This document shows, in pieces, positions 7,845-64,000 of a DNA stretch of 64,000 bases. The DNA is taken from NCBI GenBank assembly GCA_964632485.1, contig CAZWDO010000006.1, forward strand, positions 124,001 through 188,000, given 5' to 3'. Origin of the DNA: an uncultured bacterium. Its GTDB lineage: Bacteria; JAGOEH01. The notes beneath the pieces were generated by a model. It did no database searches. It was given only the letters and a program-made list of their open reading frames with translations, and was not told the DNA's origin. The position numbers and the translations under genes are program-made. The first letter of the stretch is position 1. Each line of letters starts with the position of its first letter.

Positions 7845-9404
7845 ATGCTTTATGGGCGCTGGTACCTACTTTTTTTTTTAATGAGTATTCCGCCCCTGTC
7901 TTATGCTCAGGATACCAGCGACGTGGCGCCAATCAATATATTGCCATCGCCGGTTTCATACCGGACTCTTTATTTGCCATCGGTTTACGATTATCGACTC
8001 AGTCGTCGGTATTTGATCCAGGAAGCGAATAAGGGGGATGCCCAGGCCCAGCATGAATTGGGATTGCGTTATCTATTCGGCTTCGGATTTGATGCGGATA
8101 CGGCGCAAGGAGTTGCCTGGCTTAAAAAAGCTGCCGATGCTCGCTTGCCGATTGCCTTATATAATTATGGAATCATGTTGAATACTGGGATTGGAGTTGA
8201 GTGGAATCCCTTTGAAGCTTTTCGTTATTTCCAATTTGCGGCAGATAGTTTGCTGTCGCAGGCCCAATATGCCTTGGGGATTATCTACCGGGCGAATTTG
8301 ATTGTCCCTCGTCAGGAGAAAATTGCTATTTACTATTTGACTCAGGCAGCGCGCCAGGATTTCGAACCTGCCCATGCTGCTTTGGATGAATGGCGCAGAA
8401 AAGAACCGGGTCTTTTTATAAATTTTTCGTTAGATGATTCACAATCCGCTACTTCAATGATTGACACAGTATTTAATTCGCAGCCAGAAATTGCGTTAAT
8501 CGATGGGGGATTTGAGTGGGATTTTATTGAATTTAATGCGGATTCGGGATTAGGTTATAATGAGCGCACGATTCTTGAACCCCTTTTTAATAAAAATGAA
8601 GATGAATTGGGACAAATTTTAGGCGCCAGGACCACTCTTGCCGCAAAAGACGAAGGAGATAGCGCTAAACTCGACATCATACTGCAAGTCGCCCGGGCAG
8701 GTAGCCCCGAAGCCTTGCTGATGATGGGTATGTTTCATCAGTATGGATATAAAGTTAAAAAGAATTTAATACATGCTGTTCATTACTACTTGCGGGCCTG
8801 GCGGTTGGGTTCCTTCAAGGCTTGGGAGTTTCTAAATCAGATGAGCCAGGATTCTAATCTTGTTCCTGCGCTGGATCAGGCCATTCGACGAAAAAATCCG
8901 GAGGCGATGTTCGACCGGGCAGGGATGACGGCTATTGGACTGGATATGAGTTTATCATCGGCGCAAGCTTGGAGTTTGCTGATTACCGCTGCCGATCAGA
9001 AATTTATCAGCGCTGTTTTGGAAGCCGGTATCTGTTTCTACTCGGGAATCCTGGTCGATAAAGATCGACAACGGGCGCTTGAATATTGGAATTTGGCCTC
9101 TGAATTAGGAGATAGCGAAGGCGATGTCCGCATCGACATGGCGACTTTAAGCGACACTCTTTTCCAGGGAAACAAGCAATCTTCCCTGAGTCGCTTAAAT
9201 CAAGCTGTCGAAAACGGATCTGTTTTAGCTCAATTAGCTTTAGGTGATTGTTATAAGCATGGCTGGGGCGTTAAACGTAATTGGGGCCAAGCCGCTGCTT
9301 GGTACCAACAAGCCGGGATGAGGGGAAATATGGCAGCTTTCCAGTCGTATAAAAATATGCTGGATTCACTCCGACCTCCTTATTCAGAATTTCAAATTCG
9401 TTAG
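7845..9404 (+). CDS. Secreted Sel1-repeat protein
   Basis: Signal-peptide-like N-terminus; repeats such as AQHELGLRYLFGFG, ALYNYGIMLNTGIGV, AQYALGIIY and AQLALGDCYKHGWGV. Start position uncertain (7824 or 7845). Confidence 0.85.
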   Translation: MLYGRWYLLFFLMSIPPLSYAQDTSDVAPINILPSPVSYRTLYLPSVYDYRLSRRYLIQEANKGDAQAQHELGLRYLFGFGFDADTAQGVAWLKKAADARLPIALYNYGIMLNTGIGVEWNPFEAFRYFQFAADSLLSQAQYALGIIYRANLIVPRQEKIAIYYLTQAARQDFEPAHAALDEWRRKEPGLFINFSLDDSQSATSMIDTVFNSQPEIALIDGGFEWDFIEFNADSGLGYNERTILEPLFNKNEDELGQILGARTTLAAKDEGDSAKLDIILQVARAGSPEALLMMGMFHQYGYKVKKNLIHAVHYYLRAWRLGSFKAWEFLNQMSQDSNLVPALDQAIRRKNPEAMFDRAGMTAIGLDMSLSSAQAWSLLITAADQKFISAVLEAGICFYSGILVDKDRQRALEYWNLASELGDSEGDVRIDMATLSDTLFQGNKQSSLSRLNQAVENGSVLAQLALGDCYKHGWGVKRNWGQAAAWYQQAGMRGNMAAFQSYKNMLDSLRPPYSEFQIR

Positions 9405-10966: not shown

Positions 10967-12613
10967 TTAAATGACTTCGATATTTTTTTTATTTAATAAC
11001 TGCAATCCGTGTTCTTTGAGTTTATATTTTTGAATTTTACCACTGGCCGTCATTGGATACTCGTTTACGAAAAAGACATATTTCGGGACTTTATGGCGTG
11101 AAATTTTTCCCCGGCAGAAATCGATAATATCATCTTCGGCAAGGATAGAGCCTTCCTTTAGACGAATAAAAGCGCCGACTTGCTCCCCGTATTTGTGACT
11201 GGCGATGCCTGCCACTTGCACATCCTGGATTTCCGGAATACTCAGCAGAAATTCTTCGATTTCACGCGGATAGATGTTTTCTCCGCCCCGAATGATCATG
11301 TCCTTGATGCGGCCAGTGATGCGTAAATAGCCGTTGCTATTCATGGCGCCCAGATCTCCTGAATGGAGCCAGCCTTGATTGTCAATGACAGCGCGGGTCG
11401 CTTCGGGCATTTTATAATACCCCTTCATAATATTGTATCCCCGGCAACATACTTCACCCTGAATATCGGCAGGGCAGTTTTCACCCGTTTCAGGATTGAC
11501 TACACATACTTCGATTTCCGGCAATGCCTGTCCGACGGTGGAAACCCGCAGCTCTATCGGGTCATCGGTTCGCGTTTGTGTCATCACTGGCGAAGCCTCA
11601 GTCAATCCGTAGGCAATCGTGATTTCCCGACAATTCATTTTGTCAATGACCTGCCGCATAATTTCGATGGGACAGGGGGAACCTGCCATGATTCCAGTCC
11701 GCAAACTATTGAACGTGAACAACGGAAACATTGGATGATTTAGCATCGCGATAAACATCGTAGGGACTCCATATAGAGCGGTACATTGCTCCTTTTCTAC
11801 TGCTGCCAGCGCTAACAACGGGTCAAATCCTTCAAGAATAACCAGGGTCGATCGATGACTCAAAGCGGCCATCACCCCTAATACTAAACCAAAACAATGA
11901 AATAAAGGTACTGGAAGACAAATCCGATCTTCTGCTGTAAACTTTTGGCATTCGCCGATAAAAAAACCATTATTGACAATATTGTAATGAGTTAACATCA
12001 CCCCTTTGGGAAATCCCGTCGTTCCTGATGTATACTGCATATTTATGACTTCATGGCAATCCATATCCGTCTGAATAGCCGCTAGGTCATCTTCTGGCTG
12101 ATGAGCGCCTAATAAAAGCAGTTCGGCTGTGTTAAACATACCACGATGTTTTTCAGGTCCAATGAATATTACATTCTTTAAACAGGGAAACCGGTTCGTG
12201 TTGAGATGTCCCCGTTCACACGTGCGCAGTTCCGGGATCAATTCATAAATCATTCCTAAATAATCATTTTCACGAAAACTGTCAATTAGGCAAAGCGTGT
12301 TAATATCCGATTGTTGAATCAGATATTCAAGCTCATGGAGCCGATAAGCGGTATTAATTGTCACCAGCACTACGCCAATTTTAGCAGTTGCAAAAAGAAA
12401 GGTCAACCAATCCGGAACATTGCTCGCCCAGATTCCCAAATGATCTCCTTTTTTTAGACCCATGGCAAGCAAACCGTTTGCCATTAAATCAACACGTGAA
12501 TTGAATCCACGATATGTCATGCGAAGATCGCGGTCAGCATATATTATGAACTCATGATCAGGATTGAGTTGCGCGGCTTCTTCCAATAATCCGCCTATTG
12601 TTTTTTCTATCAT
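10967..12613 (-). CDS. AMP-dependent acyl-CoA synthetase
   Basis: [47 protein letters not shown] and TASGKIQK motifs. Confidence 0.93.
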
Positions 12614-13521: not shown

Positions 13522-14508
13522 CTACCTGGAGTTGAAAAGTAGCGAATCCAAATGCTTACTAAACTTTTCCGCGCCCGTAATATTTAGATGGTCAGAATCC
13601 CAAAAGCAATCGTCCGTCAGTTTCCAGTTGCTGAAATCATAGTATTCTATTTGTGGGAATTGTTTTTTAAGCTGAGTGATCAGAGTATAAAATTCATTGA
13701 GATAAGATGAATTAAAAGATGAACGATAAGCTTTTGAATAAGGAGGAGTTATGAGCACAATATTTTTTTTCCGAGCCAACAATAGTGTGATAATTTTTTG
13801 ATAGTAGGTCATATTTTCGTTGATCAAATCTCGATTGTATAAGGATTGATGATTTTCAGCTTTTAATTGTCCGTGCCTTAAAAGTTGGCTGGAAGGCATG
13901 TAGGTGTTATTGTAACGATATCCATTGGCAATGAGAACTTCATCCGGTAGATTTGAATTTTCAGAAACTGCCGAACATGTGTCAATGCGATGGAGGACGG
14001 GTCTTTTTTTTAAGATCAAGTCTTTGATCAAACCGTAATGATGCGTATAGAAGAGTGAACTATAAAGCCATGTCCGCAGTATATTTTGACTCCGCGGACT
14101 AATACCTAATTCATGATAATAGTCTTTCGCAAAGAAAGGTTCATAGGTCTCTTCGTCATAGCCAAAAGAAAACCATGAGAGAGTCAAAATTACGGTTTGG
14201 AGGGAGGGCAGACGATCAATATATTTTTCAATAATTTGATAATCATAATAAACATCCTGTGACGAGTACGACAGATTAAAAGTTTTTTCGCGGAAAAATT
14301 GGGGGTTCAGACTTTTTTCTCCATGAGAAGCCCCTAAAATTAGTACGTGAATTTGACTGAGTTGATTCACAATAGATGAATGTTTGAAATATAGATCGGT
14401 ACGGCTGGTGTACATTAAACGGGCTAAAAATTCAAGAAAACTGAGTTGAACGATAAGTAACAGGAAAAAATAGGCTAGCTTTTTTATAAAGTGACGTTCT
14501 AATATCAT
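13522..14508 (-). CDS. Membrane-anchored SGNH-like (DltD/PatB-type) acyltransferase
   Basis: N-terminal TM helix, ILGASH (Ser nucleophile block) and C-terminal FWDSDHLN (DxxH). Confidence 0.75.
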   Translation of the reverse strand: MILERHFIKKLAYFFLLLIVQLSFLEFLARLMYTSRTDLYFKHSSIVNQLSQIHVLILGASHGEKSLNPQFFREKTFNLSYSSQDVYYDYQIIEKYIDRLPSLQTVILTLSWFSFGYDEETYEPFFAKDYYHELGISPRSQNILRTWLYSSLFYTHHYGLIKDLILKKRPVLHRIDTCSAVSENSNLPDEVLIANGYRYNNTYMPSSQLLRHGQLKAENHQSLYNRDLINENMTYYQKIITLLLARKKNIVLITPPYSKAYRSSFNSSYLNEFYTLITQLKKQFPQIEYYDFSNWKLTDDCFWDSDHLNITGAEKFSKHLDSLLFNSR

Positions 14509-54738: not shown

Positions 54739-56031
54739 ATGAGACTTATGCTTGGTCTATTCCTTTTTACTCTGGGCGTCAGTTTGTTCCCGCAAGCAAG
54801 CGTGTCGCAACCTATGCCGGAAAAGGAACTATTCTCGATGCGGAACCGCATTTTCTTTGATTATTTTTTTATGTATAACCGGGAATTGAACGATTCTCTT
54901 TATCAAATGGAAATTGACTATCAGATACCTATAAGTTTTTTGAAATTTTTTCTGGATGATTCCCTTTACCAAAGCCGCTACGAAATACGTTTGGTTTTGT
55001 ATAAAGACGAACGTTTTATCTGGGACCGGGTATGGGAAAAACAAATTATGGAAAAACAATATGAGAACACGATGCAATCAAATTTCTATTGCCTTGACAA
55101 AGTTGATTTTGAAGTGGATTCGGGAAAATATCAATGTCAAATCCAATTGTATGATACACATTCAAAGAATCAGTTCGAACATACCATTCGTTTTGAATTG
55201 CCACCAATTAAAGGCAACGGAGAATTAGTATCTTCCTTTAAATTTGGGTATCAAACAATTTTGGATTCGGACTCTGTTCGAAAGATGCTGCCAAATATTT
55301 CTCGTATTTATGAAGAGAAGGAACCCCTTCTTTATATTGATTATATTTTAAGCGGGAAAATGGAAATTGATTCTATCTATTATTTGATTGAAGTGATGAA
55401 AGATGATAATGTCAAAGAGGAAATCCTGAATCGTTCTTTTTTGCTCTTGAAGGATCGCCCTTTAACCAGCCATATTGTTGACAGTATCCGCCTGGTTAAA
55501 TTTCCTCAAGCTAAATATAATTTTCAACTGATAGTGGGTTCCAGAGCAGGATCAATTCGCCGGGAAAAAGTGTTTATCATAGGCGGACAATCGATTTTGC
55601 CTTCAATCAGTTTTAAAGACCATCTTCGGTTGTTGAGTTTGATTGCTAAAGGCGATGAAATGAGCCGTTTGAAAAAAGCAAAGGAAGAGGGATTGACGGA
55701 CCAGGAAGCGCTGGATAAATTTTGGAAGGAGCGCGATCCGAATCCCCAGACAGAAGAAAATGAAGAGCGGGATGAATTCTACAAGCGGGTTTTTTTTGCG
55801 ATTCAAAATTTTTCGGTGGGACGGTTTAAACCCGGTTGGGATACGGATCGGGGACGGGTGTATATTTCGTTAGGCACTCCGGATAATGTTGAACGATATG
55901 ACTATAACATGCAGGGAAAACCTTACCAGATCTGGTACTATTATCGCCAAAACCGCCAATATGTTTTTGTTGATTATAGTGGTTTTGGAGATTACGAATT
56001 GATTCCGGGTAGCGGTTTGGACTATTATTAA
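54739..56031 (+). CDS. GWxTD domain-containing exported protein
   Basis: Signal peptide; FWKERDPNP.TEENE, GWDTDRGRVYISLGTPD and YQIWYY...FVD motifs. Confidence 0.9.
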   Translation: MRLMLGLFLFTLGVSLFPQASVSQPMPEKELFSMRNRIFFDYFFMYNRELNDSLYQMEIDYQIPISFLKFFLDDSLYQSRYEIRLVLYKDERFIWDRVWEKQIMEKQYENTMQSNFYCLDKVDFEVDSGKYQCQIQLYDTHSKNQFEHTIRFELPPIKGNGELVSSFKFGYQTILDSDSVRKMLPNISRIYEEKEPLLYIDYILSGKMEIDSIYYLIEVMKDDNVKEEILNRSFLLLKDRPLTSHIVDSIRLVKFPQAKYNFQLIVGSRAGSIRREKVFIIGGQSILPSISFKDHLRLLSLIAKGDEMSRLKKAKEEGLTDQEALDKFWKERDPNPQTEENEERDEFYKRVFFAIQNFSVGRFKPGWDTDRGRVYISLGTPDNVERYDYNMQGKPYQIWYYYRQNRQYVFVDYSGFGDYELIPGSGLDYY

Positions 56032-56043
56032 AAGCAGAGGATA

Positions 56044-57564
56044 GTGATGAATCTTGATCAATTTTTAAATGAATCAAAACATGAAAGTTTTTTAAAACAA
56101 GCTTGTAAACAACGCGTTTTAACCTGGGATGAATTGAATCTGGTTTTAGATCGGAATATCGTTGATGAAGAAAGAATTGAAACTGTTATCGATTTTTTCG
56201 AACAACAGGGTATCGAATTGGTCAGTGAACGAGAAAAAAAATGGATTCTGAAAACCGGAAGAAGAAAAAAGAAACATAAGCGGCTAACACCTTTGAATCC
56301 GTTTAATAAAAATGATCAATTGGGCAATTTTATGAAGATTTATGATCATCTTTTAGAATTAACGGAAGATGAAAAACAGCGGCAAATTATGGTAATACGG
56401 CGGGAAGAAAAAATTCTCGAAGACCTGTTGTTTCGATCTTTATACCTGCTATACTTTCTTTACGGCTACCGAAACGAAGAGATGACTCCGCAGGCGCTGG
56501 AAAATCTGTTGAATTGTTTTCAACCTAATTTTTTAAAGGCTGTTATGATCTATGATCGTCAAATCGCTTATTTCAGACAATGGTTTGATGACCAGTGGCA
56601 AATCTGGACTGCTTATGCGCAAGCCTCTCAAAAACAACAGGATAATGAAGCAGAATCGTTGATGAAAGAACTTCTTGACCAATTGGTGTCGCTGAATTGG
56701 AAATCAAAAAAATTGCGTTCATTATTAAATGATTTCATTCGGGAGGACGGCTTTTTTACACTTGCCAATCGTAAAGAAGAGGAATATGGATTCCTGGTGG
56801 CTTATTTGAAAGACTACCAGAAAGAGACACGGAAACACTATGACCGCCTGCAAGAGAAACGCAACTCATTGATTGAATCAGAAATGAAACTGGTTATTTC
56901 TATCGCAAAGTTGTATAGTGGGAGAGGCATCGATTTTGTTGATCTCATCCAGGAAGGTAACCGAGGATTGGTGGAAGCGTTAGACAACTATACTACTGAA
57001 TCTCAAGCCCCCTTTCAACAGTATGTCACCCGCTATATTCGACGAGCGATTACGCACTATATGGCTTGTAATAGCAATTCGTTTGTTATTTCGCGTCAGC
57101 AATTAAGAGCCATTCATCGCATTAAACGCGTGCGAAACCAATTAACTCAGGAATTGCATCGAGATCCTACCCCTGAGGAAATTGTACAACATTGCGGTAT
57201 CCCCCTGCATACGGTGAATAATCTTCTCAATGCCAGTAAACGCGAAACCTCCTGGGAAAATCAACTTAATTTATCACGCACCGAATTTCACTTGACGGAT
57301 GATCAGAATAAAACGGTTGAAATTTCTGAAACCTGGATTAAACGACTGGAAAACATTCGCTTGAGCCAAACTCTGAGTGATCGTGAAGAGAAGGTGATGA
57401 AATTAAAGTATGGCTATTATGGAGTGGCTTATCCTGAAGAAGAGATTTCCGAGATTTTGGGTTTAACAATTCAACGGATTCGCCAGATTGAAAAAATTGC
57501 CCGTCATAAGATGAAATCGCGGATGAAATTGTTGAAAATTGATGGATATGTTGTTTTACCATGA
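56044..57564 (+). CDS. RpoD-like sigma-70 family factor with degenerate DNA-contact regions
   Basis: Region 1.1-like N-terminus, region 2 LVISIAKLYSGRGIDFVDLIQEGNRGL, region 3 QELHRDPTPEEI and region 4 LSDREEKVMKLKYG...RIRQIE. Confidence 0.85.
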   Translation: MMNLDQFLNESKHESFLKQACKQRVLTWDELNLVLDRNIVDEERIETVIDFFEQQGIELVSEREKKWILKTGRRKKKHKRLTPLNPFNKNDQLGNFMKIYDHLLELTEDEKQRQIMVIRREEKILEDLLFRSLYLLYFLYGYRNEEMTPQALENLLNCFQPNFLKAVMIYDRQIAYFRQWFDDQWQIWTAYAQASQKQQDNEAESLMKELLDQLVSLNWKSKKLRSLLNDFIREDGFFTLANRKEEEYGFLVAYLKDYQKETRKHYDRLQEKRNSLIESEMKLVISIAKLYSGRGIDFVDLIQEGNRGLVEALDNYTTESQAPFQQYVTRYIRRAITHYMACNSNSFVISRQQLRAIHRIKRVRNQLTQELHRDPTPEEIVQHCGIPLHTVNNLLNASKRETSWENQLNLSRTEFHLTDDQNKTVEISETWIKRLENIRLSQTLSDREEKVMKLKYGYYGVAYPEEEISEILGLTIQRIRQIEKIARHKMKSRMKLLKIDGYVVLP

Positions 57565-57624
57565 AAAATCTTAAAAAACTACTTGATTTTTTAATTAAAT
57601 TGTGTTAATTTAACTTAACATTGG

Positions 57625-57698
57625 GGGCCCATAGCTCAGTTGGTTAGAGCTACCGGCTCATAACCGGTCGGTCCTAGGTTCAAGTCCTAGTGGGCCCA
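57625..57698 (+). tRNA. tRNA with CAU anticodon, most likely tRNA-Ile2 (lysidine-modified)
   Basis: Cloverleaf GGGCCCA/TGGGCCC, D-arm AGCTCAGTTGGTTAGAGC, anticodon loop CTCATAA, T-loop GTTCAAGT. G1-C72 pair argues against the initiator. CCA is not encoded. Confidence 0.95.
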
Positions 57699-57708
57699 CT
57701 AAAAAGGA

Positions 57709-58443
57709 GTGGTATCATTGAAAGACGAACCCCAAATTCTTAGAAAACTGATTGAATTGCAGGTCTTTGATAGTGAAATTCAAGATTTGGAACAGCAGTT
57801 CTATAGTATTCCTGAATCCCTGAATAGTATTAAAATCCGAATTCAAAATCTGGATGACCAGTTTAGCAAAATGAATGCCGTGGTCAGCGCCCAGGAAACT
57901 GAATTGAAACAATTGGCTCAGGAACAGGCAGATACAAGCGCCCGTTTCGATAAATACCAGGGACAGCTCATGCAAGTTAAAACCAATAAGGAATACGATG
58001 CTGTTTTAGCGGAAATTGAAAACTGTCAAAAAGTTTTACGGGATAATGAAGAAAAACAGATGGAGGGCCAGGAAAAATTAGAAAAACTTCAACTTGAAAA
58101 AGGAAAAATCGAGGCTGAATGTTTAAAGTTTAAGGCAGAATATGTGCCTTTGTTGCAAGAATTAGAAACCAAATACGCCATTGTAAAAAATGAGTTTGAT
58201 CTTAAAACTGCTGATCGGCAGGAAAAGATTGCATCGATTCCCAAAACTATTTTTTCGCGGTACGAAAAAATTCGCAAAGGAACTGATGGCCGGGCAGTAG
58301 TCGCTATCATACGTGGAAGTGCCTGTGGCGGATGTTATCAGGCTTTACCGAAACATACAATCAATGAAATTCTCCGCAATAATCGCGTCATTAATTGTGA
58401 GCATTGCGGACGAATTCTCTATGCTGATGAAACACTCGGTTAA
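57709..58443 (+). CDS. Coiled-coil protein with C-terminal C4 zinc ribbon (DUF164/CT398-like)
   Basis: LIELQVFD, long coiled coil, KTNKEYDA and CGGC...CEHCGRIL. Start may be TTG at 57718. Confidence 0.92.
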   Translation: MVSLKDEPQILRKLIELQVFDSEIQDLEQQFYSIPESLNSIKIRIQNLDDQFSKMNAVVSAQETELKQLAQEQADTSARFDKYQGQLMQVKTNKEYDAVLAEIENCQKVLRDNEEKQMEGQEKLEKLQLEKGKIEAECLKFKAEYVPLLQELETKYAIVKNEFDLKTADRQEKIASIPKTIFSRYEKIRKGTDGRAVVAIIRGSACGGCYQALPKHTINEILRNNRVINCEHCGRILYADETLG

Positions 58444-58749
58444 AGGTAAATGAGACGGTTGCTCCGGCTTATGCTGGAGAGGAAAGTCCGGACTCCTTAA
58501 GGCAGGATGATTCTTAACGAGAATCGGGAGTAATCCCGGGAAAGCGCCACAGAAACGAGACCGATTCAGCTTCGGCTGAATACGGGTGAAAAGGGCATGC
58601 CCCATCTGGAGCAAGACCAAATATGAAAATCCGCCCCGCCTTAGGCGTATGGTTTTCGGGTGGGTCGCTTGATGACAGGAGCGATTCTGTTACCAGATAG
58701 ATAACCGTCACCCTTTGGGGAACAGAATCCGGCTTACAGTTTACCTTTA
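58441..58749 (+). ncRNA. rnpB: RNase P RNA
   Basis: GAGGAAAGTCCGGACT and AACAGAATCCGGCTTA (P4), ACAGAAA, GGGTGAAA and GAGCAAG conserved regions; P1 is TAAAGGTAAA/TTTACCTTTA. Confidence 0.96.
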
Positions 58750-58773
58750 ACCGCTTTTAACAAGGGAGCTAAG

Positions 58774-59394
58774 ATGGATTTTATCGTACGTTTGTTTATT
58801 GATGGCGGAGCGACCATGATAGTGATTGGTTTTTTTAATTTGATCGCTTTGTTTATCGTACTGGAACGGATCTTTTTTTTATATTTTCGCGCAAATATCA
58901 ATGCGCATCGTTTTATGGACCGGATTTACGCAATGTTTAAAGAGAAACAGATCAATGAAGCGATTACGCTTTGCAATCAACGGAACAAACCCTTTACGAA
59001 ACTGATTGGCGCGGCATTGCAGAATTATGAGAATACCGACCGCGGCATTCAGGATTCCATGGATGAAGTGTTTTTGACGGAATCGCCGCGGATCAAACGT
59101 TACACTCCGTTTTTAACGGTGATCGGCCAGATTGCAACCCTGTTGGGATTGTTGGGAACGATTGTCGGATTGATCGAAGCGTTTGATGCGTTGGCCGGTA
59201 CGGGGGCTGCGGATCGGACGGAACAGTTGGCGCTGGGCATCTCGAAAGCCATGGCAACTACGGCCTATGGGTTGATTGTGGCTGTGTTTTGTATTTTTAC
59301 TTTTGCGTTTCTGAATCTGAAGATTGATCGAATCATTGACGACATTGATGAATATTCGGTCAAAATTGTTAATTTCATCCATAAATACCGTTAA
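58774..59394 (+). CDS. MotA/TolQ/ExbB proton channel protein (copy 1)
   Basis: Three TM segments; ATLLGLLGTIVGLIEAF and GISKAMATTAYGLIVA. Confidence 0.93.
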   Translation: MDFIVRLFIDGGATMIVIGFFNLIALFIVLERIFFLYFRANINAHRFMDRIYAMFKEKQINEAITLCNQRNKPFTKLIGAALQNYENTDRGIQDSMDEVFLTESPRIKRYTPFLTVIGQIATLLGLLGTIVGLIEAFDALAGTGAADRTEQLALGISKAMATTAYGLIVAVFCIFTFAFLNLKIDRIIDDIDEYSVKIVNFIHKYR

Positions 59395-59409
59395 ACAAGG
59401 AGAGAGCCC

Positions 59410-59871
59410 ATGCCATTTGCTGTCTCCAAACGAGCAAAAAAACATTTTGTCTTTCGTGAGTTGGATATTGTTGCAATTTTAAATATTTTTCTGTTGCTGA
59501 TCCCTTTTCTTTTATACTCCGTCGTTTTTTCGCGTATGGTCGCGCTTAATCTGCGGTTGCCTGAACGCGATAAAACCGAACAGAGCAAGCCATCCTCACT
59601 GAAAAAGCCTGCTCTCAAACCTTTGAGATTATTTATTGGTACGGATTCGCTACGTTTTTTCGCCGATACCACCCGACTGAGTGGTTTGCCTTTTTCTATC
59701 CTGGAAGATTCCCGAACCATCAAAAACATTTTAACAGAAATTGCGCAGGAAAATCCTGATTACAAAACTCTGGTAATGATACCCAATGACTCTATCCAGT
59801 ATCAATCAATTATCGCTATTATGGATATTTCCCGTCAAGCTGGTTTTAAAAAAATATCGATGTCCTACTAA
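59410..59871 (+). CDS. ExbD/TolR family protein (Asn at the conserved TM Asp position)
   Basis: ELDIVAILNIFLLLIPFLL TM segment; C-terminal YQSIIAIMDISRQAGFKKIS. Confidence 0.88.
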   Translation: MPFAVSKRAKKHFVFRELDIVAILNIFLLLIPFLLYSVVFSRMVALNLRLPERDKTEQSKPSSLKKPALKPLRLFIGTDSLRFFADTTRLSGLPFSILEDSRTIKNILTEIAQENPDYKTLVMIPNDSIQYQSIIAIMDISRQAGFKKISMSY

Positions 59872-59885
59872 AGGGAGTGTAATTT

Positions 59886-60434
59886 ATGCCGTTTCCAGTA
59901 TCAAAACGATTCGAAAACCGCTTCCATATAAAAGTACGTGATCGGGAATACTCCCATTTAAATATCACTTCTTTGCTGGATATGTTTATTATTGTACTTT
60001 TTTTTCTGTTAAAAACGTATACCGTGGAAGGAAAAATTCCACCCGTATCCGAAAAACTTATTCTTCCTAAAACCGTTTCTAAAGATGTCGTAAAAAATTA
60101 CGGGATTGTCGTTTATATTACAAAAGAACGTCTTTATTGCCAGGCAAAAGAACTCTATTCTGTGGAAGATTTAAAAAAACAGAAATCTTTAAAAATCGAT
60201 TCGCTTTTCATGATGTTGCGTGAGAACTATGAGATAACCGAACAGTTTATAGCCACGCATCAAATTGATGAACAGAACGCGCGCAATATTAGAGGAATTC
60301 TAACGATTGTCGGTGATGGAGAAGTTCCCTACCAAATCATGAAACGAATTATCTATACCTGTTATCTCACCGGATATAATAATATCTTCCTGGCAAGTCA
60401 GGAAGCCGGTTCTGATAAGATAACTTATTTTTAA
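59886..60434 (+). CDS. ExbD/TolR family protein
   Basis: LNITSLLDMFIIVLFFLL TM segment with conserved Asp; GDGEVPYQIMKRII. Confidence 0.9.
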   Translation: MPFPVSKRFENRFHIKVRDREYSHLNITSLLDMFIIVLFFLLKTYTVEGKIPPVSEKLILPKTVSKDVVKNYGIVVYITKERLYCQAKELYSVEDLKKQKSLKIDSLFMMLRENYEITEQFIATHQIDEQNARNIRGILTIVGDGEVPYQIMKRIIYTCYLTGYNNIFLASQEAGSDKITYF

Positions 60435-60474
60435 TGTTAGCTAAACCTTTATTCCATACTAAAAGGGTGGACCG

Positions 60475-61485
60475 ATGAAAGAAAAAAAACGCTTAGGTGA
60501 TATCCTCAGGGAGCAGGGGAAGATAACCGAGGACCAAATTCAACAAACACTACTCGTTCAAAAGGAAAGTGGCGGCCGTCTGGGTGGTAATCTGGTGCGA
60601 CTCGGTATCTGCTCTGCGGACGAAGTTACCGATGCGGTCATCGTACAATTCACTTTATCCGAGATTGATTCTCTCAGCGGATATTTAATTGATATTTCCA
60701 CTATTATGATAGTCCCTTATCATTTGGCTAAAAAAAATTCAATCATCCCTATTGAGCTGGATGGTCAGATTCTGCTGATGGCCAGCAGTAAACCCATCTC
60801 CTCCGAACTCTCTGGTGAGATATCCAGGACTACCGGATTCACTCCAAAATCATTTATCTTACCGGAAAAAATTATCCAGGACTCCATTTCTGAGTACTAT
60901 GCTCCTGTACTGGCGTTGAAGAGATCATGGCTGGATGATGATCGTCTCAGAAGCGGCATATTGATTTCTTTATTGATTCTTCTTCTTTTGCTTTTAGTAT
61001 GTAATTTTAAAAAGCATTTTAATTCATACGTGGACCCTCGTACCGCTAAAAAAAGTACCAGTATCATATCCGAAATGGCTCCTATCGATTTTCTCACAGA
61101 AGATGAAATGGATGTCATTCAGTTAACCCAGATGGTGGAAGATGCTCATACCAGTCTGGAAGGTGAAATTTTCCTGAAAGAGGGACGGGATGTACGTAAA
61201 CAGGAAGATGTGATTAGAATTTTACGGATGAATTACGATGATCTGATCCGGCTTTATAATCGCTATTTGCGACGCTATCCCAATATCAAGGGTAAAGTCA
61301 TCTTTGATGTAACGATTAATGCTGCTGGGAAAGTGGTTAAAGTTATAATTATATCATCTGAAATCAGCGATAACGTATTTGTTCAAAGCGCGATTGATGT
61401 CATTAAAGAATGGCGTTTTCAAGCGATTGAAGTTGATGTGGATGCGGTTTTGCGTTTCCCCTTCGATTTTAAAATCGCTCAATAA
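60475..61485 (+). CDS. MshEN/GspE-N domain + TM + TonB-C (AgmX/PglI-type) fusion protein
   Basis: Tandem RLG motifs at the N-terminus, one TM helix (GILISLLILLLLLLV), C-terminal LYNRYLRRYPNIKGKVIFDVTINAAGKV...WRF...FPFDF. Confidence 0.82.
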   Translation: MKEKKRLGDILREQGKITEDQIQQTLLVQKESGGRLGGNLVRLGICSADEVTDAVIVQFTLSEIDSLSGYLIDISTIMIVPYHLAKKNSIIPIELDGQILLMASSKPISSELSGEISRTTGFTPKSFILPEKIIQDSISEYYAPVLALKRSWLDDDRLRSGILISLLILLLLLLVCNFKKHFNSYVDPRTAKKSTSIISEMAPIDFLTEDEMDVIQLTQMVEDAHTSLEGEIFLKEGRDVRKQEDVIRILRMNYDDLIRLYNRYLRRYPNIKGKVIFDVTINAAGKVVKVIIISSEISDNVFVQSAIDVIKEWRFQAIEVDVDAVLRFPFDFKIAQ

Positions 61486-61517
61486 ATTAAACCAAAATTC
61501 AAACGGGGAGATATACG

Positions 61518-62138
61518 ATGGACTTTATTGTACGTTTGTTTGTTGATGGCGGCGCAACCATGATAGTGATTGGTTTTTTTAATTTGATCGCCTTGTTTAT
61601 CGTACTGGAACGGATCTTTTTTTTATATTTTCGAGCGAATATTAACGCGCATCGCTTCATGGATCGGATTTATGCGATGTTTAAAGAAAAAAAGATCAAT
61701 GAAGCGATTACGCTTTGCAATCAACGGAACAAACCGTTTACGAAACTGATCGGCGCAGCATTGCAGAATTATGAGAATACCGACCGCAGCATTCAGGATT
61801 CCATGGATGAAGTGTTTTTGACGGAATCGCCGCGGATCAAACGTTATACTCCGTTTTTAACGGTAATCGGCCAGATTGCGACGTTGTTGGGATTGTTAGG
61901 AACGATTGTCGGATTGATTGAAGCGTTTGATGCGTTGGCCGGGACGGGGGCTGCGGACCGGACGGAACAGTTGGCGCTGGGCATCTCGAAAGCCATGGCA
62001 ACCACGGCCTACGGGTTGATAGTGGCTGTGTTTTGTATTTTTACTTTCGCCTTTCTGAATCTGAAAATCGATCAGCTCGTTGATGACATTGATGAATATT
62101 CAGTTAAAATTGTCAATTTTATTCACAAATTCCGCTAA
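61518..62138 (+). CDS. MotA/TolQ/ExbB proton channel protein (copy 2)
   Basis: 199 of 206 aa identical to 58774-59394. Confidence 0.93.
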   Translation: MDFIVRLFVDGGATMIVIGFFNLIALFIVLERIFFLYFRANINAHRFMDRIYAMFKEKKINEAITLCNQRNKPFTKLIGAALQNYENTDRSIQDSMDEVFLTESPRIKRYTPFLTVIGQIATLLGLLGTIVGLIEAFDALAGTGAADRTEQLALGISKAMATTAYGLIVAVFCIFTFAFLNLKIDQLVDDIDEYSVKIVNFIHKFR

Positions 62139-62143
62139 GTTTA

Positions 62144-62851
62144 ATGGGAGATAGCTCTTTACCGGCGCATGTCGCGATCATTATGGACGGGAATGGTCGA
62201 TGGGCCAAACAACGTTTTCTACCTCGCTTGATGGGACACCGCGCCGGAATCAAAACAGTAAAAAAAATTGTGCGGCATGCCGGTCAAATCGGTATCCGCT
62301 TTTTGACCTTGTATACCTTTTCTACTGAAAATTGGAAACGCCCTCCCGAAGAAATCTCCGGTTTGATGAAACTGCTCTATGATAATTTGTTCAGTGAAAC
62401 TGACGAACTTAATCAAAATCAGGTGCGGTTGCGTACAATCGGCGATACGGGTCAACTTCCTGATTCGGTACAATTCGCTTTAAAAAAGGCGATTGAAAAA
62501 CTGAATGATAATACTGGTCTGACGCTGATTCTGGCGCTTAATTATGGGAGTCGGAATGAAATCGGCCGCGCGATCGCCCGCTTGGCCCGCGACGTGGAAA
62601 CTCAACAGTTAAAAGTATCAGATATCAATGAGTTAACCCTCGCATCCTACTTAGATACCGCCGATTTTCCCGACCCGGAGCTTATTATCCGGACTTCCGG
62701 AGAATTCAGATTATCAAATTTTTTAATGTACCAGTCTGCATACAGTGAATACTATATCACTGAAAAATTTTGGCCAGATTTTGACGAACAGGAATTTGAC
62801 CGGGCTCTATCTTCGTTTGCTATTCGTAACCGTCGATACGGGGGTATCTGA
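62144..62851 (+). CDS. uppS: Undecaprenyl/polyprenyl diphosphate synthase
   Basis: HVAIIMDGNGRWA, FSTENWKRP, ALNYGSR, IRTSGEFRLSNF and RRYGG motifs. Confidence 0.97.
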   Translation: MGDSSLPAHVAIIMDGNGRWAKQRFLPRLMGHRAGIKTVKKIVRHAGQIGIRFLTLYTFSTENWKRPPEEISGLMKLLYDNLFSETDELNQNQVRLRTIGDTGQLPDSVQFALKKAIEKLNDNTGLTLILALNYGSRNEIGRAIARLARDVETQQLKVSDINELTLASYLDTADFPDPELIIRTSGEFRLSNFLMYQSAYSEYYITEKFWPDFDEQEFDRALSSFAIRNRRYGGI

Positions 62852-63652
62852 TTGCTTCTCCGTATTCTTTCCGCCGCAGCATTGATCCCTGTCGTACTTG
62901 CCATTTCATGGTTCGGTGATTGGCCGCTTGTACTTTTTATTTTTGTGGTCCAATTGCTGGCGTTATGGGAATTAAATTCCTTAAATTGCCTTAAGGGTAA
63001 CCAGGATTTAAGAGAATGGATATTGTTACCTCTCTTAGGTACCCTCCTGTTTGCTTATCTGAAACTGAAAATACCTGTATGGATTTTCCCCGCTGGTTCT
63101 TTTACTCTTTGGATGGTTTTTCAAATTATTCGTAAGCGATTACCAGATGGTGGGTTAATTGAGGCTGCTGTTTTTGTGTTTTCTATGGCTTATTTAGTAT
63201 TGCCCGGTTGGTGCTGGTTCCAGCTCAGAGAACTTGAAAATGGTTTTTTTCTGTTGATACTTTGTTATTTGGGCACTTGGTTACCCGATACGGGGGGGTA
63301 TTTTTTTGGCAGCGTTTGGGGCAAACACAAAATTACTCCCTTGTTGAGCCCCAAAAAAAGCTGGGAAGGATTGATCGGCGGTTTATTTATAACGCTGCTG
63401 GGCTTGATCCTTTGGTTCAAAAATTCCTGGTTTCCGGCTCCGGCATTCTGGAATTATACTGTAATCGTTTTTTATGCTATTTTGATCTGTATTGTTGGGT
63501 TTGTGGGTGATATTTTTGAGAGTATGTTGAAACGGGATTGTGGCGTAAAAGATTCTTCGAGTATTATCCCCGGACATGGCGGGGTTTTAGATCGTATGGA
63601 CAGTTTTTATTTTAATATTGTTTTTACTTATCTATTTACATTTTTGTTATGA
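62852..63652 (+). CDS. cdsA: Phosphatidate cytidylyltransferase
   Basis: DTGGYFFG, SPKKSWEG and GDIFESMLKR..GVKDS..IIPGHGGVLDRMDS motifs. Confidence 0.96.
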   Translation: MLLRILSAAALIPVVLAISWFGDWPLVLFIFVVQLLALWELNSLNCLKGNQDLREWILLPLLGTLLFAYLKLKIPVWIFPAGSFTLWMVFQIIRKRLPDGGLIEAAVFVFSMAYLVLPGWCWFQLRELENGFFLLILCYLGTWLPDTGGYFFGSVWGKHKITPLLSPKKSWEGLIGGLFITLLGLILWFKNSWFPAPAFWNYTVIVFYAILICIVGFVGDIFESMLKRDCGVKDSSSIIPGHGGVLDRMDSFYFNIVFTYLFTFLL

Positions 63653-64000
63653 AAAAACGAATCATCCTTTTAGGTAGTACTGGTTCGATTGGTGAGAACA
63701 CCCTGGAAATCGTTCGCCGTTTCCCTGACCAATTTGAAATTATTAGCTTAGTTGCGCATTTGCAGTGGGAAAAATTAGCTAATCAGATTCAGGAATTCAA
63801 ACCCCAAAAAGTAGCGCTTTTCGATCCGGATGCGGCGATATCGCTCCGGAAGGTCAATCCGGCTTGTAGCGTTTTGACAGGTACTGAGGGGATTTTAGAG
63901 ATATTGGACACGGTGGATTGCGATATTTTGGTTAACGCAATTGTTGGGATGAATGGTTTGATTCCAACCTGGCATGCCGTGGGGCGGATTCCGCGAATTG
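63649..64000 (+). CDS. dxr: 1-deoxy-D-xylulose-5-phosphate reductoisomerase (3'-truncated by window edge)
   Basis: MKKRIILLGSTGSIGENTLEIV...VNAIVG; follows uppS-cdsA. Confidence 0.95.
   Translation, partial: MKKRIILLGSTGSIGENTLEIVRRFPDQFEIISLVAHLQWEKLANQIQEFKPQKVALFDPDAAISLRKVNPACSVLTGTEGILEILDTVDCDILVNAIVGMNGLIPTWHAVGRIPRI

Follow-up and report, generated by a model that had tools for sequence, protein, structure and literature searches.

Can the force-transmitting protein of an envelope motor of the Ton/Tol class be placed under the direct control of a cytoplasmic second messenger? Control of the Ton, Tol and Agl motors is believed to come from the periplasm (through ligand-loaded transporters or cues from the divisome), a small GTPase taking this role in Myxococcus, and to our knowledge cyclic dimeric guanosine monophosphate (c-di-GMP) acts on the related flagellar stator only via a separate PilZ protein. 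The question is raised by a locus of an uncultured bacterium (assembly GCA_964632485.1), located in a stretch of 64,000 nucleotides of contig CAZWDO010000006.1 (positions 124,001 to 188,000 of the forward strand) that we call the window and whose numbering we use throughout. At positions 58774-62138 of the window, an exbB gene and two exbD genes are followed by a gene (60475-61485, + strand) whose 336-residue product joins an MshEN domain, known as a c-di-GMP receptor, through a single transmembrane helix to a TonB-type C-terminal domain; a near-identical second exbB closes the group. An earlier note, made from the sequence alone, read this group as a candidate c-di-GMP-gated motor of Ton/Tol/Agl type. 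The domain architecture of the fusion protein, the conservation of its operon and of its ligand-binding residues, and the folds of its two domains are described first; we then ask how c-di-GMP might act on such a motor, and weigh the alternatives.

The MshEN-TonB fusion protein

The fusion protein starts with two motifs of 24 residues each (aa 6-29 and 35-58), separated by the five-residue spacer KESGG. This N-terminal half of the MshEN domain (MshEN_N, predicted to carry the c-di-GMP-binding site; 60490-60648) matches the NCBIfam model NF053729, 'c-di-GMP_motif', over aa 6-55 with 54.9 bits (cut-off 38). The second, GspE-N-like half (MshEN_C, aa 66-144; 60670-60906) is recognised by the Pfam MshEN model PF05157 with 32.8 bits (cut-off 23.1), and aa 2-142 align with the N-domain of Vibrio cholerae MshE (5htl) with an E-value of 1.4e-13. 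When compared with the relaxed motif described by Wang et al. 2016 (PMC5013675), the tandem shows three mismatches at 26 constrained positions (six with the strict motif); none of 2000 shuffled versions of the fusion protein reached three mismatches, and the best value, four, was obtained in 2 of the 2000.

The residues of MshE described as contacting the ligand are R9, L10, G11, Q32, R38, G40, L54, L58 and Q61 (PMC5013675). In the alignment with 5htl, R6, L7, G8, Q29, R35, G37 and Q58 of the fusion protein stand opposite R9, L10, G11, Q32, R38, G40 and Q61, L36 likewise sits at a ligand-contacting position, and the positions of L54 and L58 are both occupied by Val. Q29, R35 and L36 are invariant in all eight aligned members of the family, and G8, G37 and Q58 in the six close members. 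The AlphaFold2 model (built from an alignment of 59 sequences) has a mean pLDDT (predicted local distance difference test) score of 87.8 and exceeds 90 in both folded domains, aa 1-150 included. With the N-domain of this model, Foldseek retrieves 5htl ('MshE with cdg') as the top match in the PDB (E = 6e-9), followed by c-di-GMP-bound GSPII-B domains of PilF; it also matches the N-domain of PilB with PilZ (7lkm) and XpsE-N (2d28). The model thus shows the fold expected of MshEN, four helices in MshEN_N and an alpha/beta MshEN_C, although the TM-scores to these MshEN targets are only about 0.5 because the two halves of the domain are oriented differently. The presence in the putative transducer of an N-terminal MshEN domain with a well-preserved c-di-GMP site is thus confirmed, and the pattern of conserved residues makes it likely, in our opinion, that this domain binds c-di-GMP. 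One residue of the second motif departs from the published one: Cys46 (60610-60612), at position 12, is invariant in the six close members, the published motif having Leu, Val or Ile at this place.

A single strongly hydrophobic segment follows (aa 158-176; 60946-61002; mean Kyte-Doolittle value 2.72), which AlphaFold2 models as a helix from 156 to 186. Since only six residues separate it from the last helix of MshEN (131-149), the MshEN domain would be held directly under the membrane, next to the transmembrane helix. We infer that the N-terminus is inside and the C-terminus outside, which is the only sensible topology given the lack of an N-terminal signal-like segment, the single helix and the usual compartments of MshEN and TonB_C; the charges flanking the helix (three Lys+Arg on each side) are not decisive. 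The predicted periplasmic linker (aa 179-242; 61009-61200), largely of low confidence or disordered in the AlphaFold2 model, is short, acidic and not proline-rich, with 2 Pro and 13 Asp+Glu among its 64 residues. Similar lengths (60-65 residues) are found in all seven short members of the family (P0001 to P0003, P0013 to P0015 and P0031), with 0-2 Pro and 12-19 Asp+Glu in the six close members, and 5 Pro and 8 Asp+Glu in P0031.

The C-terminal domain (aa 242-333; 61198-61473) is of the AgmX/PglI subtype: NF033768, the model for the C-terminal domain of AgmX/PglI, gives 57.9 bits (cut-off 40), the more general TIGR01352 (TonB_Cterm) 33 bits (cut-off 27.1), and Pfam TonB_C (PF03544) 33.6 bits over aa 270-334 (cut-off 24.6). 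A Tyr-Pro pair lies inside the domain, at aa 268-269. The structural neighbours of the modelled domain (from about aa 243) are TonB C-domains, including 7zc8, 5lw8, 6sly, 6fip and 2gsk (E-values of 3e-3 to 1.6e-2 for these and up to 4e-2 for TonB matches in general, target TM-scores of 0.49-0.65); among them are those of FusB and of the TonB proteins of Helicobacter pylori, Pseudomonas aeruginosa and Escherichia coli, the latter bound to BtuB; the C-domains of TolA are weaker matches (E-values of 0.14-0.6).

The architecture read from the letters in the earlier note agrees with these results. The two 24-residue motifs and their five-residue linker lie exactly where it placed them; the GspE-N-like region, the one transmembrane helix and the short linker poor in proline are borne out by Pfam, hydropathy and the AlphaFold2 model; the C-terminal domain is TonB-C-like and of AgmX/PglI type, as it had said; and the scan with hidden Markov models that it suggested for MshEN and for TonB_C/AgmX-PglI returned matches above the curated cut-offs for both. 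Its placement of the N-terminal domain in the cytoplasm is also that of the topology given above, as no hydrophobic segment precedes the single helix.

The stator genes and the conserved operon

The fusion gene is the fourth of five co-oriented genes lying between the RNase P RNA gene and uppS and separated by gaps of 15, 14, 40 and 32 bp. The order on the + strand, tightly packed, is exbB1-exbD1-exbD2-fusion-exbB2-uppS-cdsA-dxr. The product of exbB1 (58774-59394; 206 aa; Pfam MotA_ExbB, 96.6 bits) is a TolQ/ExbB-type proton-channel subunit, presumably forming the pentameric shell of the stator, and that of exbB2 (61518-62138; MotA_ExbB, 97.0 bits) differs from it at only 7 of 206 residues. 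The two genes between exbB1 and the fusion encode ExbD/TolR paralogues: exbD1 (59410-59871; 153 aa; Pfam ExbD, 49.8 bits) and exbD2 (59886-60434; 182 aa; Pfam ExbD, 50.8 bits), the latter with an insertion of about 19 residues (periplasmic domain). The gaps that precede uppS, cdsA and dxr (62144-63999; Pfam Prenyltransf, CTP_transf_1 and DXP_reductoisom; the end of the window truncates dxr) are of 5, 0 and -4 bp, so that the operon probably continues into these envelope-lipid genes.

By several measures this stator is closer to Tol than to Ton. The best NCBIfam match of ExbB is TIGR02796 (tolQ), with 73.4 bits (below its cut-off), the exbB models giving 42-46 bits; its best match in the PDB is TolQ (8odt, E = 2.2e-11), ExbB structures coming at 3e-5; and the best NCBIfam match of ExbD1 is tolR. 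The pore threonines are kept, T129 and T163 aligning with those of TolQ (numbered for TolQ as in PMC12215075). In ExbD1, Asn25 stands opposite Asp25 of E. coli ExbD, the proton-carrying position (6tyi; the overall alignment is weak, E = 0.018, the transmembrane segment being clear). This Asn is found in ExbD1, and the Asp of the same column in ExbD2, in all three genomes where we have found the operon (see below). The axle of the stator is therefore probably an ExbD1-ExbD2 heterodimer, as judged from these sequences, with a protonatable Asp in ExbD2 only. The two paralogues also share their extreme N-terminus (encoded at 59410-59433 and 59886-59909): M1, P2, V5, S6 and K7 are invariant across six ExbD sequences that are otherwise only about 25% identical, and this cytoplasmic tail may serve ExbB or the MshEN domain as a place to dock. 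Going by gene order only, we consider it highly probable that the transducer associates with this ExbB/ExbD stator.

At the DNA level the two exbB copies of the window are 92% identical, and their products share 96.6% of their residues. Of 621 nucleotides, 50 differ, mostly at third codon positions (42 synonymous and 7 non-synonymous codon differences), which corresponds to a synonymous divergence (dS) of 0.40 and a ratio of non-synonymous to synonymous divergence (dN/dS) of 0.037. One of the two other genomes (L001) has a second exbB at the same place, and there the copies (8297-8917 and 11071-11691 of that locus) differ at 2 of 621 nucleotides only (99.7% identity); the other (L002) has a single copy. 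Between the window and L001, ExbB is 75% identical and dS is saturated. That the copies occupy the same position in two genomes and are more alike within than between them points to concerted evolution, presumably by gene conversion under strong purifying selection. The duplication plausibly supplies the dosage needed for a 5:1:1 complex of ExbB, ExbD1 and ExbD2. We have rejected the idea of an assembly artefact, because the copies differ at these 50 positions, their similarity stops at the ends of the coding sequences in both the window and L001, and L001 has the same arrangement.

How widespread is the fusion? A word-index search covering 5.8 billion clusters gave 12 matches, three of them with both domains (the query, P0002 and P0003) and nine pilus or secretion ATPases; when the C-terminal half (aa 150-336) was used, the query alone was recovered. 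In an alignment-based word search, 37 of 39 matches had no TonB_C and were mostly pilus ATPases. A HMMER pass over 1.84 billion representatives produced 6324 matches at E<=1e-3, only five of which reached E<=1e-30: four full-length relatives of 333-336 aa (P0002, P0013, P0014 and P0015) and an ATPase of 1042 aa with four MshEN domains. About six relatives with the order MshEN, transmembrane helix and TonB_C are present among the best 150 of these 6324 matches, and further fusions may exist beyond the best 150. Among 161 collected proteins, seven match both halves of the query, 149 the N-terminal half only and five the C-terminal half only; of 156 that match MshEN, 14 have a strongly hydrophobic segment, seven of them being this family (P0020 and P0045 are glycosyltransferases). 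All eight aligned members match both NF053729 and NF033768, including P0031 (334 aa), which has no Pfam TonB_C match, and P0110, a protein of 512 aa named in one source 'MAG: TonB family protein [Gemmatimonadetes bacterium]' (MshEN 49.5 bits, TonB_C 31.7 bits). In the ESM Atlas, a search by features yielded no usable match, and no cluster of at least 50 members combined MshEN and TonB_C among eight structural rows.

A scan of genome contigs with the single fusion protein found no locus, and the same scan with the family alignment found three. One of these (L003) was rejected, being only a PilB pilus locus of a Pirellulaceae; the two others, L001 (JAGOEH010000033.1, titled Candidatus Delongbacteria bacterium) and L002 (CAYLKS010000002.1, uncultured bacterium), are syntenic with the window. 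The order exbB-exbD-exbD-fusion, then uppS, cdsA and dxr, is kept in all three genomes, and so is an upstream block encoding a GWxTD protein, a sigma-70-like factor (500-508 aa, with region 1.1) and a CT398-type coiled-coil zinc-ribbon protein (54739-58443 in the window, 4239-7949 in L001, 4385-8046 in L002). The three genomes are very divergent: their GC contents are 42% (window), 47.5% (L001) and 27% (L002), and identities to the window in L001 and L002, respectively, are 41% and 29% for the sigma-70-like factor, 50% and 40% for the transducer, and 75% and 59% for ExbB. This housekeeping synteny also led us to reject a Zorya-like anti-phage system, PADLOC having no match for four of the five proteins and a 14-bit ZorA match for exbB2.

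The fusion gene was said in the earlier note to follow directly after exbB and two exbD genes, and this holds in all three genomes; the genes are as it named them, its title having left out the second exbB that lies within the span. The search of architectures and neighbourhoods that it called for recovered the same operon in two divergent genomes and a separate MshEN-TonB fusion, P0110. Its author knew of no characterised example, and we have found none either: no paper was found that joins MshEN with TonB, ExbB, TolQ or TonB_C (the supplementary architecture lists of PMC5013675 might include the combination), and in the text of a 2025 survey of periplasmic force transducers (PMC12204202), c-di-GMP appears in the reference list only, and T2SSE, GspE, PilZ and 'cytoplasmic domain' were not found. 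The system unites a motor of the Ton/Tol class with an MshEN receptor, both of them known parts, in a rare combination that we have not found described.

Two claims about the layout fared less well. The earlier note had given a single ExbB, a pair of ExbD and a TonB protein of AgmX/PglI type as the layout of the AglRQS-GltG motor of myxobacteria, to which it is not specific. The same order, exbB-exbD-exbD-tonB2, is found in Riemerella anatipestifer, where tonB2 is reported to be needed for hemin uptake (PMC4446302); this is an ordinary Ton layout in Bacteroidota, so that the layout alone is no pointer to the gliding motor. Ton operons of this type, from the Fibrobacterota-Chlorobiota-Bacteroidota (FCB) group, resemble ours in gene order (ExbB, two different ExbD and a TonB_C protein) and in a transducer whose single helix is N-in and whose TonB C-domain is periplasmic. 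The present system differs from them in having a cytoplasmic MshEN of 150 residues in place of a short tail, no Ser-x3-His motif in the helix (discussed below), a short acidic linker, an ExbB that is short, TolQ-like and duplicated, and an ExbD1 devoid of the transmembrane Asp. The label 'Agl-type' is not specifically supported either. According to PMC3169522, gltD/E/C, together with aglRQS and gltG, define the Agl-Glt core complex, but these are not linked here, nor are other glt genes: we found no tetratricopeptide repeat (TPR) gene in or adjoining the operon in any of the three loci (the TPR/Sel1 genes of the window are 12-50 kb away).

Real likenesses to the Myxococcus xanthus system do exist: AglRQS likewise combines a TolQ-like subunit with a heteromeric TolR-like pair, the C-domain of the transducer is of AgmX/PglI type (PMC3169522, PMC11761067), and GltG (FHA) and GltJ (ZnR, GYF) are described as having signalling domains that are folded, cytoplasmic and placed immediately ahead of the helix, as MshEN is here (PMC11761067). 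GltJ is reported to be regulated from the cytoplasm by MglA-GTP (PMC11135422), and the FHA domain of GltG touches AglR in a published AlphaFold model (PMC11761067). The cytoplasmic module of our protein is however a small-molecule receptor and not FHA or ZnR-GYF; the protein is half the size, with a linker of 64 residues against about 124 in GltG; and it matches the GltG and GltJ models (NF033760, 22.2 bits, cut-off 650; NF033761, 19 bits, cut-off 450) in the C-domain only. Seven of the eight family members match the C-terminus of GltG.

At its receptor end, the protein resembles the ATPases MshE, PilB and PilF and the glycosyltransferase NfrB (PMC5013675; 5htl, 8pdk), with the same two-motif site, fold and N-terminal position, the difference being that the output is a membrane helix with a periplasmic TonB domain instead of a cytoplasmic enzyme. 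A last comparison is with YcgR, which with bound c-di-GMP is reported to act from the cytoplasm on MotA, a stator of the MotA/ExbB 5:2 class (PMC12713396, PMC10140304); YcgR is a separate soluble PilZ protein working on the flagellar stator/rotor, whereas here MshEN is built into a transducer of the Ton/Tol class.

A possible c-di-GMP-controlled motor and its alternatives

What could such a protein do? ExbB, supplied from two near-identical genes, would form the stator shell, and c-di-GMP would bind the MshEN_N bundle of the transducer. As the MshEN domain is held six residues from the helix, it would lie beside the cytoplasmic face of ExbB, and ligand binding could shift the way it touches this side of the ExbB ring or the tails of the ExbD subunits. 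An altered engagement between helix and stator would then set whether proton flow becomes pulling by the periplasmic TonB-type domain, which would act on a partner in the outer envelope, the likeliest way being the pairing of a beta-strand with a Ton-box-like segment. The sign of the regulation is a guess: we would expect activation at high c-di-GMP, because in reports on MshE, PilB and NfrB the ligand switches the attached output on. YcgR on MotA provides a precedent for c-di-GMP acting on a stator of the MotA/ExbB class, and the GltG FHA-AglR model one for a cytoplasmic domain adjoining the helix and touching the stator. For the chain as a whole, a proton-driven motor of the TolQR/ExbBD class whose MshEN-bearing transducer delivers force under the control of c-di-GMP, we find the case evenly balanced. 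As to its output, we tentatively favour TonB-dependent transport over a Tol-like envelope role.

A number of observations weigh against this reading of a c-di-GMP-controlled motor, and are best examined together with the explanations that compete with it. Some concern the receptor. The Arg of motif 1 (R6) is Lys in P0002 and P0003, two of the six close members, and three of the six have another residue at the turn Gly of a motif. Lys16 sits at Ile19 of MshE, one of the eight positions at which XpsE, a non-binding MshEN homologue, deviates; XpsE has Arg there, and is described as having lost binding through the eight changes, I19R included (PMC5013675). No GGDEF, EAL or HD-GYP domain was detected in Pfam scans of the 60 open reading frames (ORFs) of the window, and a six-frame search for the pattern GG[DE]EF found none in the window and the three loci. 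One may thus imagine that MshEN has ceased to sense c-di-GMP in this architecture and has become a protein-protein docking module, like the N-domains of GspE/XpsE with GspL or that of PilB with PilZ, tethering the transducer to the cytoplasmic face of ExbB, to the ExbD N-terminal tails (whose invariance would suit a docking site) or to another cytoplasmic partner. The structural matches to PilB N-domain/PilZ and XpsE-N are in line with it, as is the fact that no c-di-GMP enzyme was seen near the locus. We nevertheless think that this is improbable: the other seven of the eight XpsE-type positions are kept or conservatively changed (Val for L54 and L58), the c-di-GMP motif model is matched above its cut-off in the window's protein and recognises all eight members, and the invariance of Q29, R35 and L36 across eight divergent proteins is hard to explain without a ligand. 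Other observations concern the coupling of the helix to the stator. In the E. coli Ton and Tol structures, the Ser and His of the transducer (SHLS motif, Ser-x3-His) are described as touching Ser and Trp of TM1 (the first transmembrane helix) of ExbB/TolQ and, via them, Pro of TM3, the His motif being called essential (PMC12215075). Ser-x3-His is absent from the helix of all six close members, with no His in the hydrophobic 19-mer (His181 of the window's protein falls just beyond the helix); none of the four ExbB sequences has a Trp; and Phe172 of ExbB occupies the place of the TM3 Pro of TolQ. (TM1 itself does not align reliably.) The short, proline-poor linker is a further point on this side. 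The interface between helix and stator reads as non-canonical, and the two must be coupled in some other way, if they are coupled at all; of the motor with a force transducer proposed in the earlier note, the operon context stands, and the physical coupling is less secure. Ser-x3-His is present in P0031 and P0110, the distant fusions, which indicates that MshEN-TonB fusions also occur on canonical-looking TonB helices; P0110 shares with our protein the MshEN domain, the one helix and TonB_C, and differs from it in this motif, in a linker of 201 residues with 22 Pro, and in the roughly 45 residues between MshEN and helix. The loss of the Ser-x3-His / Ser-Trp-Pro contact network of E. coli Ton/Tol on both sides would be understandable if the fusion merely neighboured the stator genes and worked without a motor, for instance as a static, c-di-GMP-responsive anchor between inner membrane and envelope. 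Such independence is very hard to believe, however, for a gene that is flanked by exbD2 (40 bp away) and exbB2 (32 bp away), in an order kept in three very divergent genomes, and in an operon that encodes no other TonB_C protein to use the motor.

The nature of the output is a more delicate matter. Among the 60 ORFs scanned in the 64 kb of the window we found no TonB-dependent transporter, tolB, pal or glt gene, which counts against transport; the unassigned ORFs of the window gave no transporter, Tol or Glt match in NCBIfam, and no gene for an outer-membrane partner was found in the two syntenic loci. The motor could then be the Tol-like or Agl/Glt-like envelope machine of this lineage, c-di-GMP coupling outer-membrane tethering, lipid homeostasis or division, or surface movement, to lifestyle or cell cycle. 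The stator is nearer to TolQ/TolR than to ExbB/ExbD in both NCBIfam and the PDB, the AgmX/PglI model outscores TonB_Cterm (57.9 against 33 bits) and the C-terminus of GltG is recognised in most members, and GltG and GltJ also have signalling domains ahead of the helix (PMC11761067). The run-on into uppS-cdsA-dxr in all three genomes would fit a constitutive envelope role. On the other side, neither tolB, pal or cpoB nor gltD/E/C is linked to the operon in any of the three loci, the scores of the TolQ, TolR, GltG and GltJ families are far under the curated cut-offs, the C-domain is structurally nearer to TonB than to TolA, with neighbours that fit the binding of a Ton box, and the Riemerella operon with the same gene order serves hemin uptake (PMC4446302). 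We therefore regard a Tol-like or Agl-like machine as rather unlikely and retain, with the reservation expressed above, a motor for TonB-dependent transport.

Neighbouring features and significance

The upstream boundary of the operon is the RNase P RNA gene rnpB (58442-58752, + strand; Rfam RF00010, 225.6 bits, gathering score 100), which lies outside the system. Its start falls on the stop codon of the zinc-ribbon gene (CT398/CdsZ-like; 57709-58443), and 21 bp separate its end from exbB1. Between this zinc-ribbon gene and the gene for the sigma factor there is a tRNA gene (57625-57698). Scans for promoters and terminators did no better than on shuffled sequences (nine promoter-like sites, the shuffles averaging 13.3, and nine terminator-like sites against 6.1). 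Elsewhere in the window, an ORF of 328 aa (13522-14508, - strand) without a Pfam match adjoins a gene for an MBOAT acyltransferase and shows a weak resemblance to the lipoprotein family TIGR02171, in its C-terminal part (47.5 bits, cut-off 544).

In its strongest form, our proposal would make this the first 5:2 motor of the Ton/Tol class with a second-messenger receptor in its transducer, one in which the contact relay has been replaced, one Asp of the axle lost, and the energy supplied to the outer envelope switched by c-di-GMP; we hold this full version to be doubtful. If it is true, control would have moved from the sensing of load in the periplasm to the sensing of a signal in the cytoplasm, and the second messenger that governs the choice between sessile and motile life would be linked directly to the energisation of the outer membrane, by the transducer's own high-affinity receptor. 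It would also add a new class of output to those of MshEN domains, and the Gemmatimonadetes fusion, with its classical helix and Pro-rich linker, would tell us that more than one phylum has the idea, whether by separate origin or by spread. Finally, a compact system of four proteins would become available for asking how the helix of a transducer talks to its stator, and its natural variants (no Ser-His, no Trp/Pro, a heterodimeric axle with one Asp) would be ready-made probes of the 5:2 rotary model.

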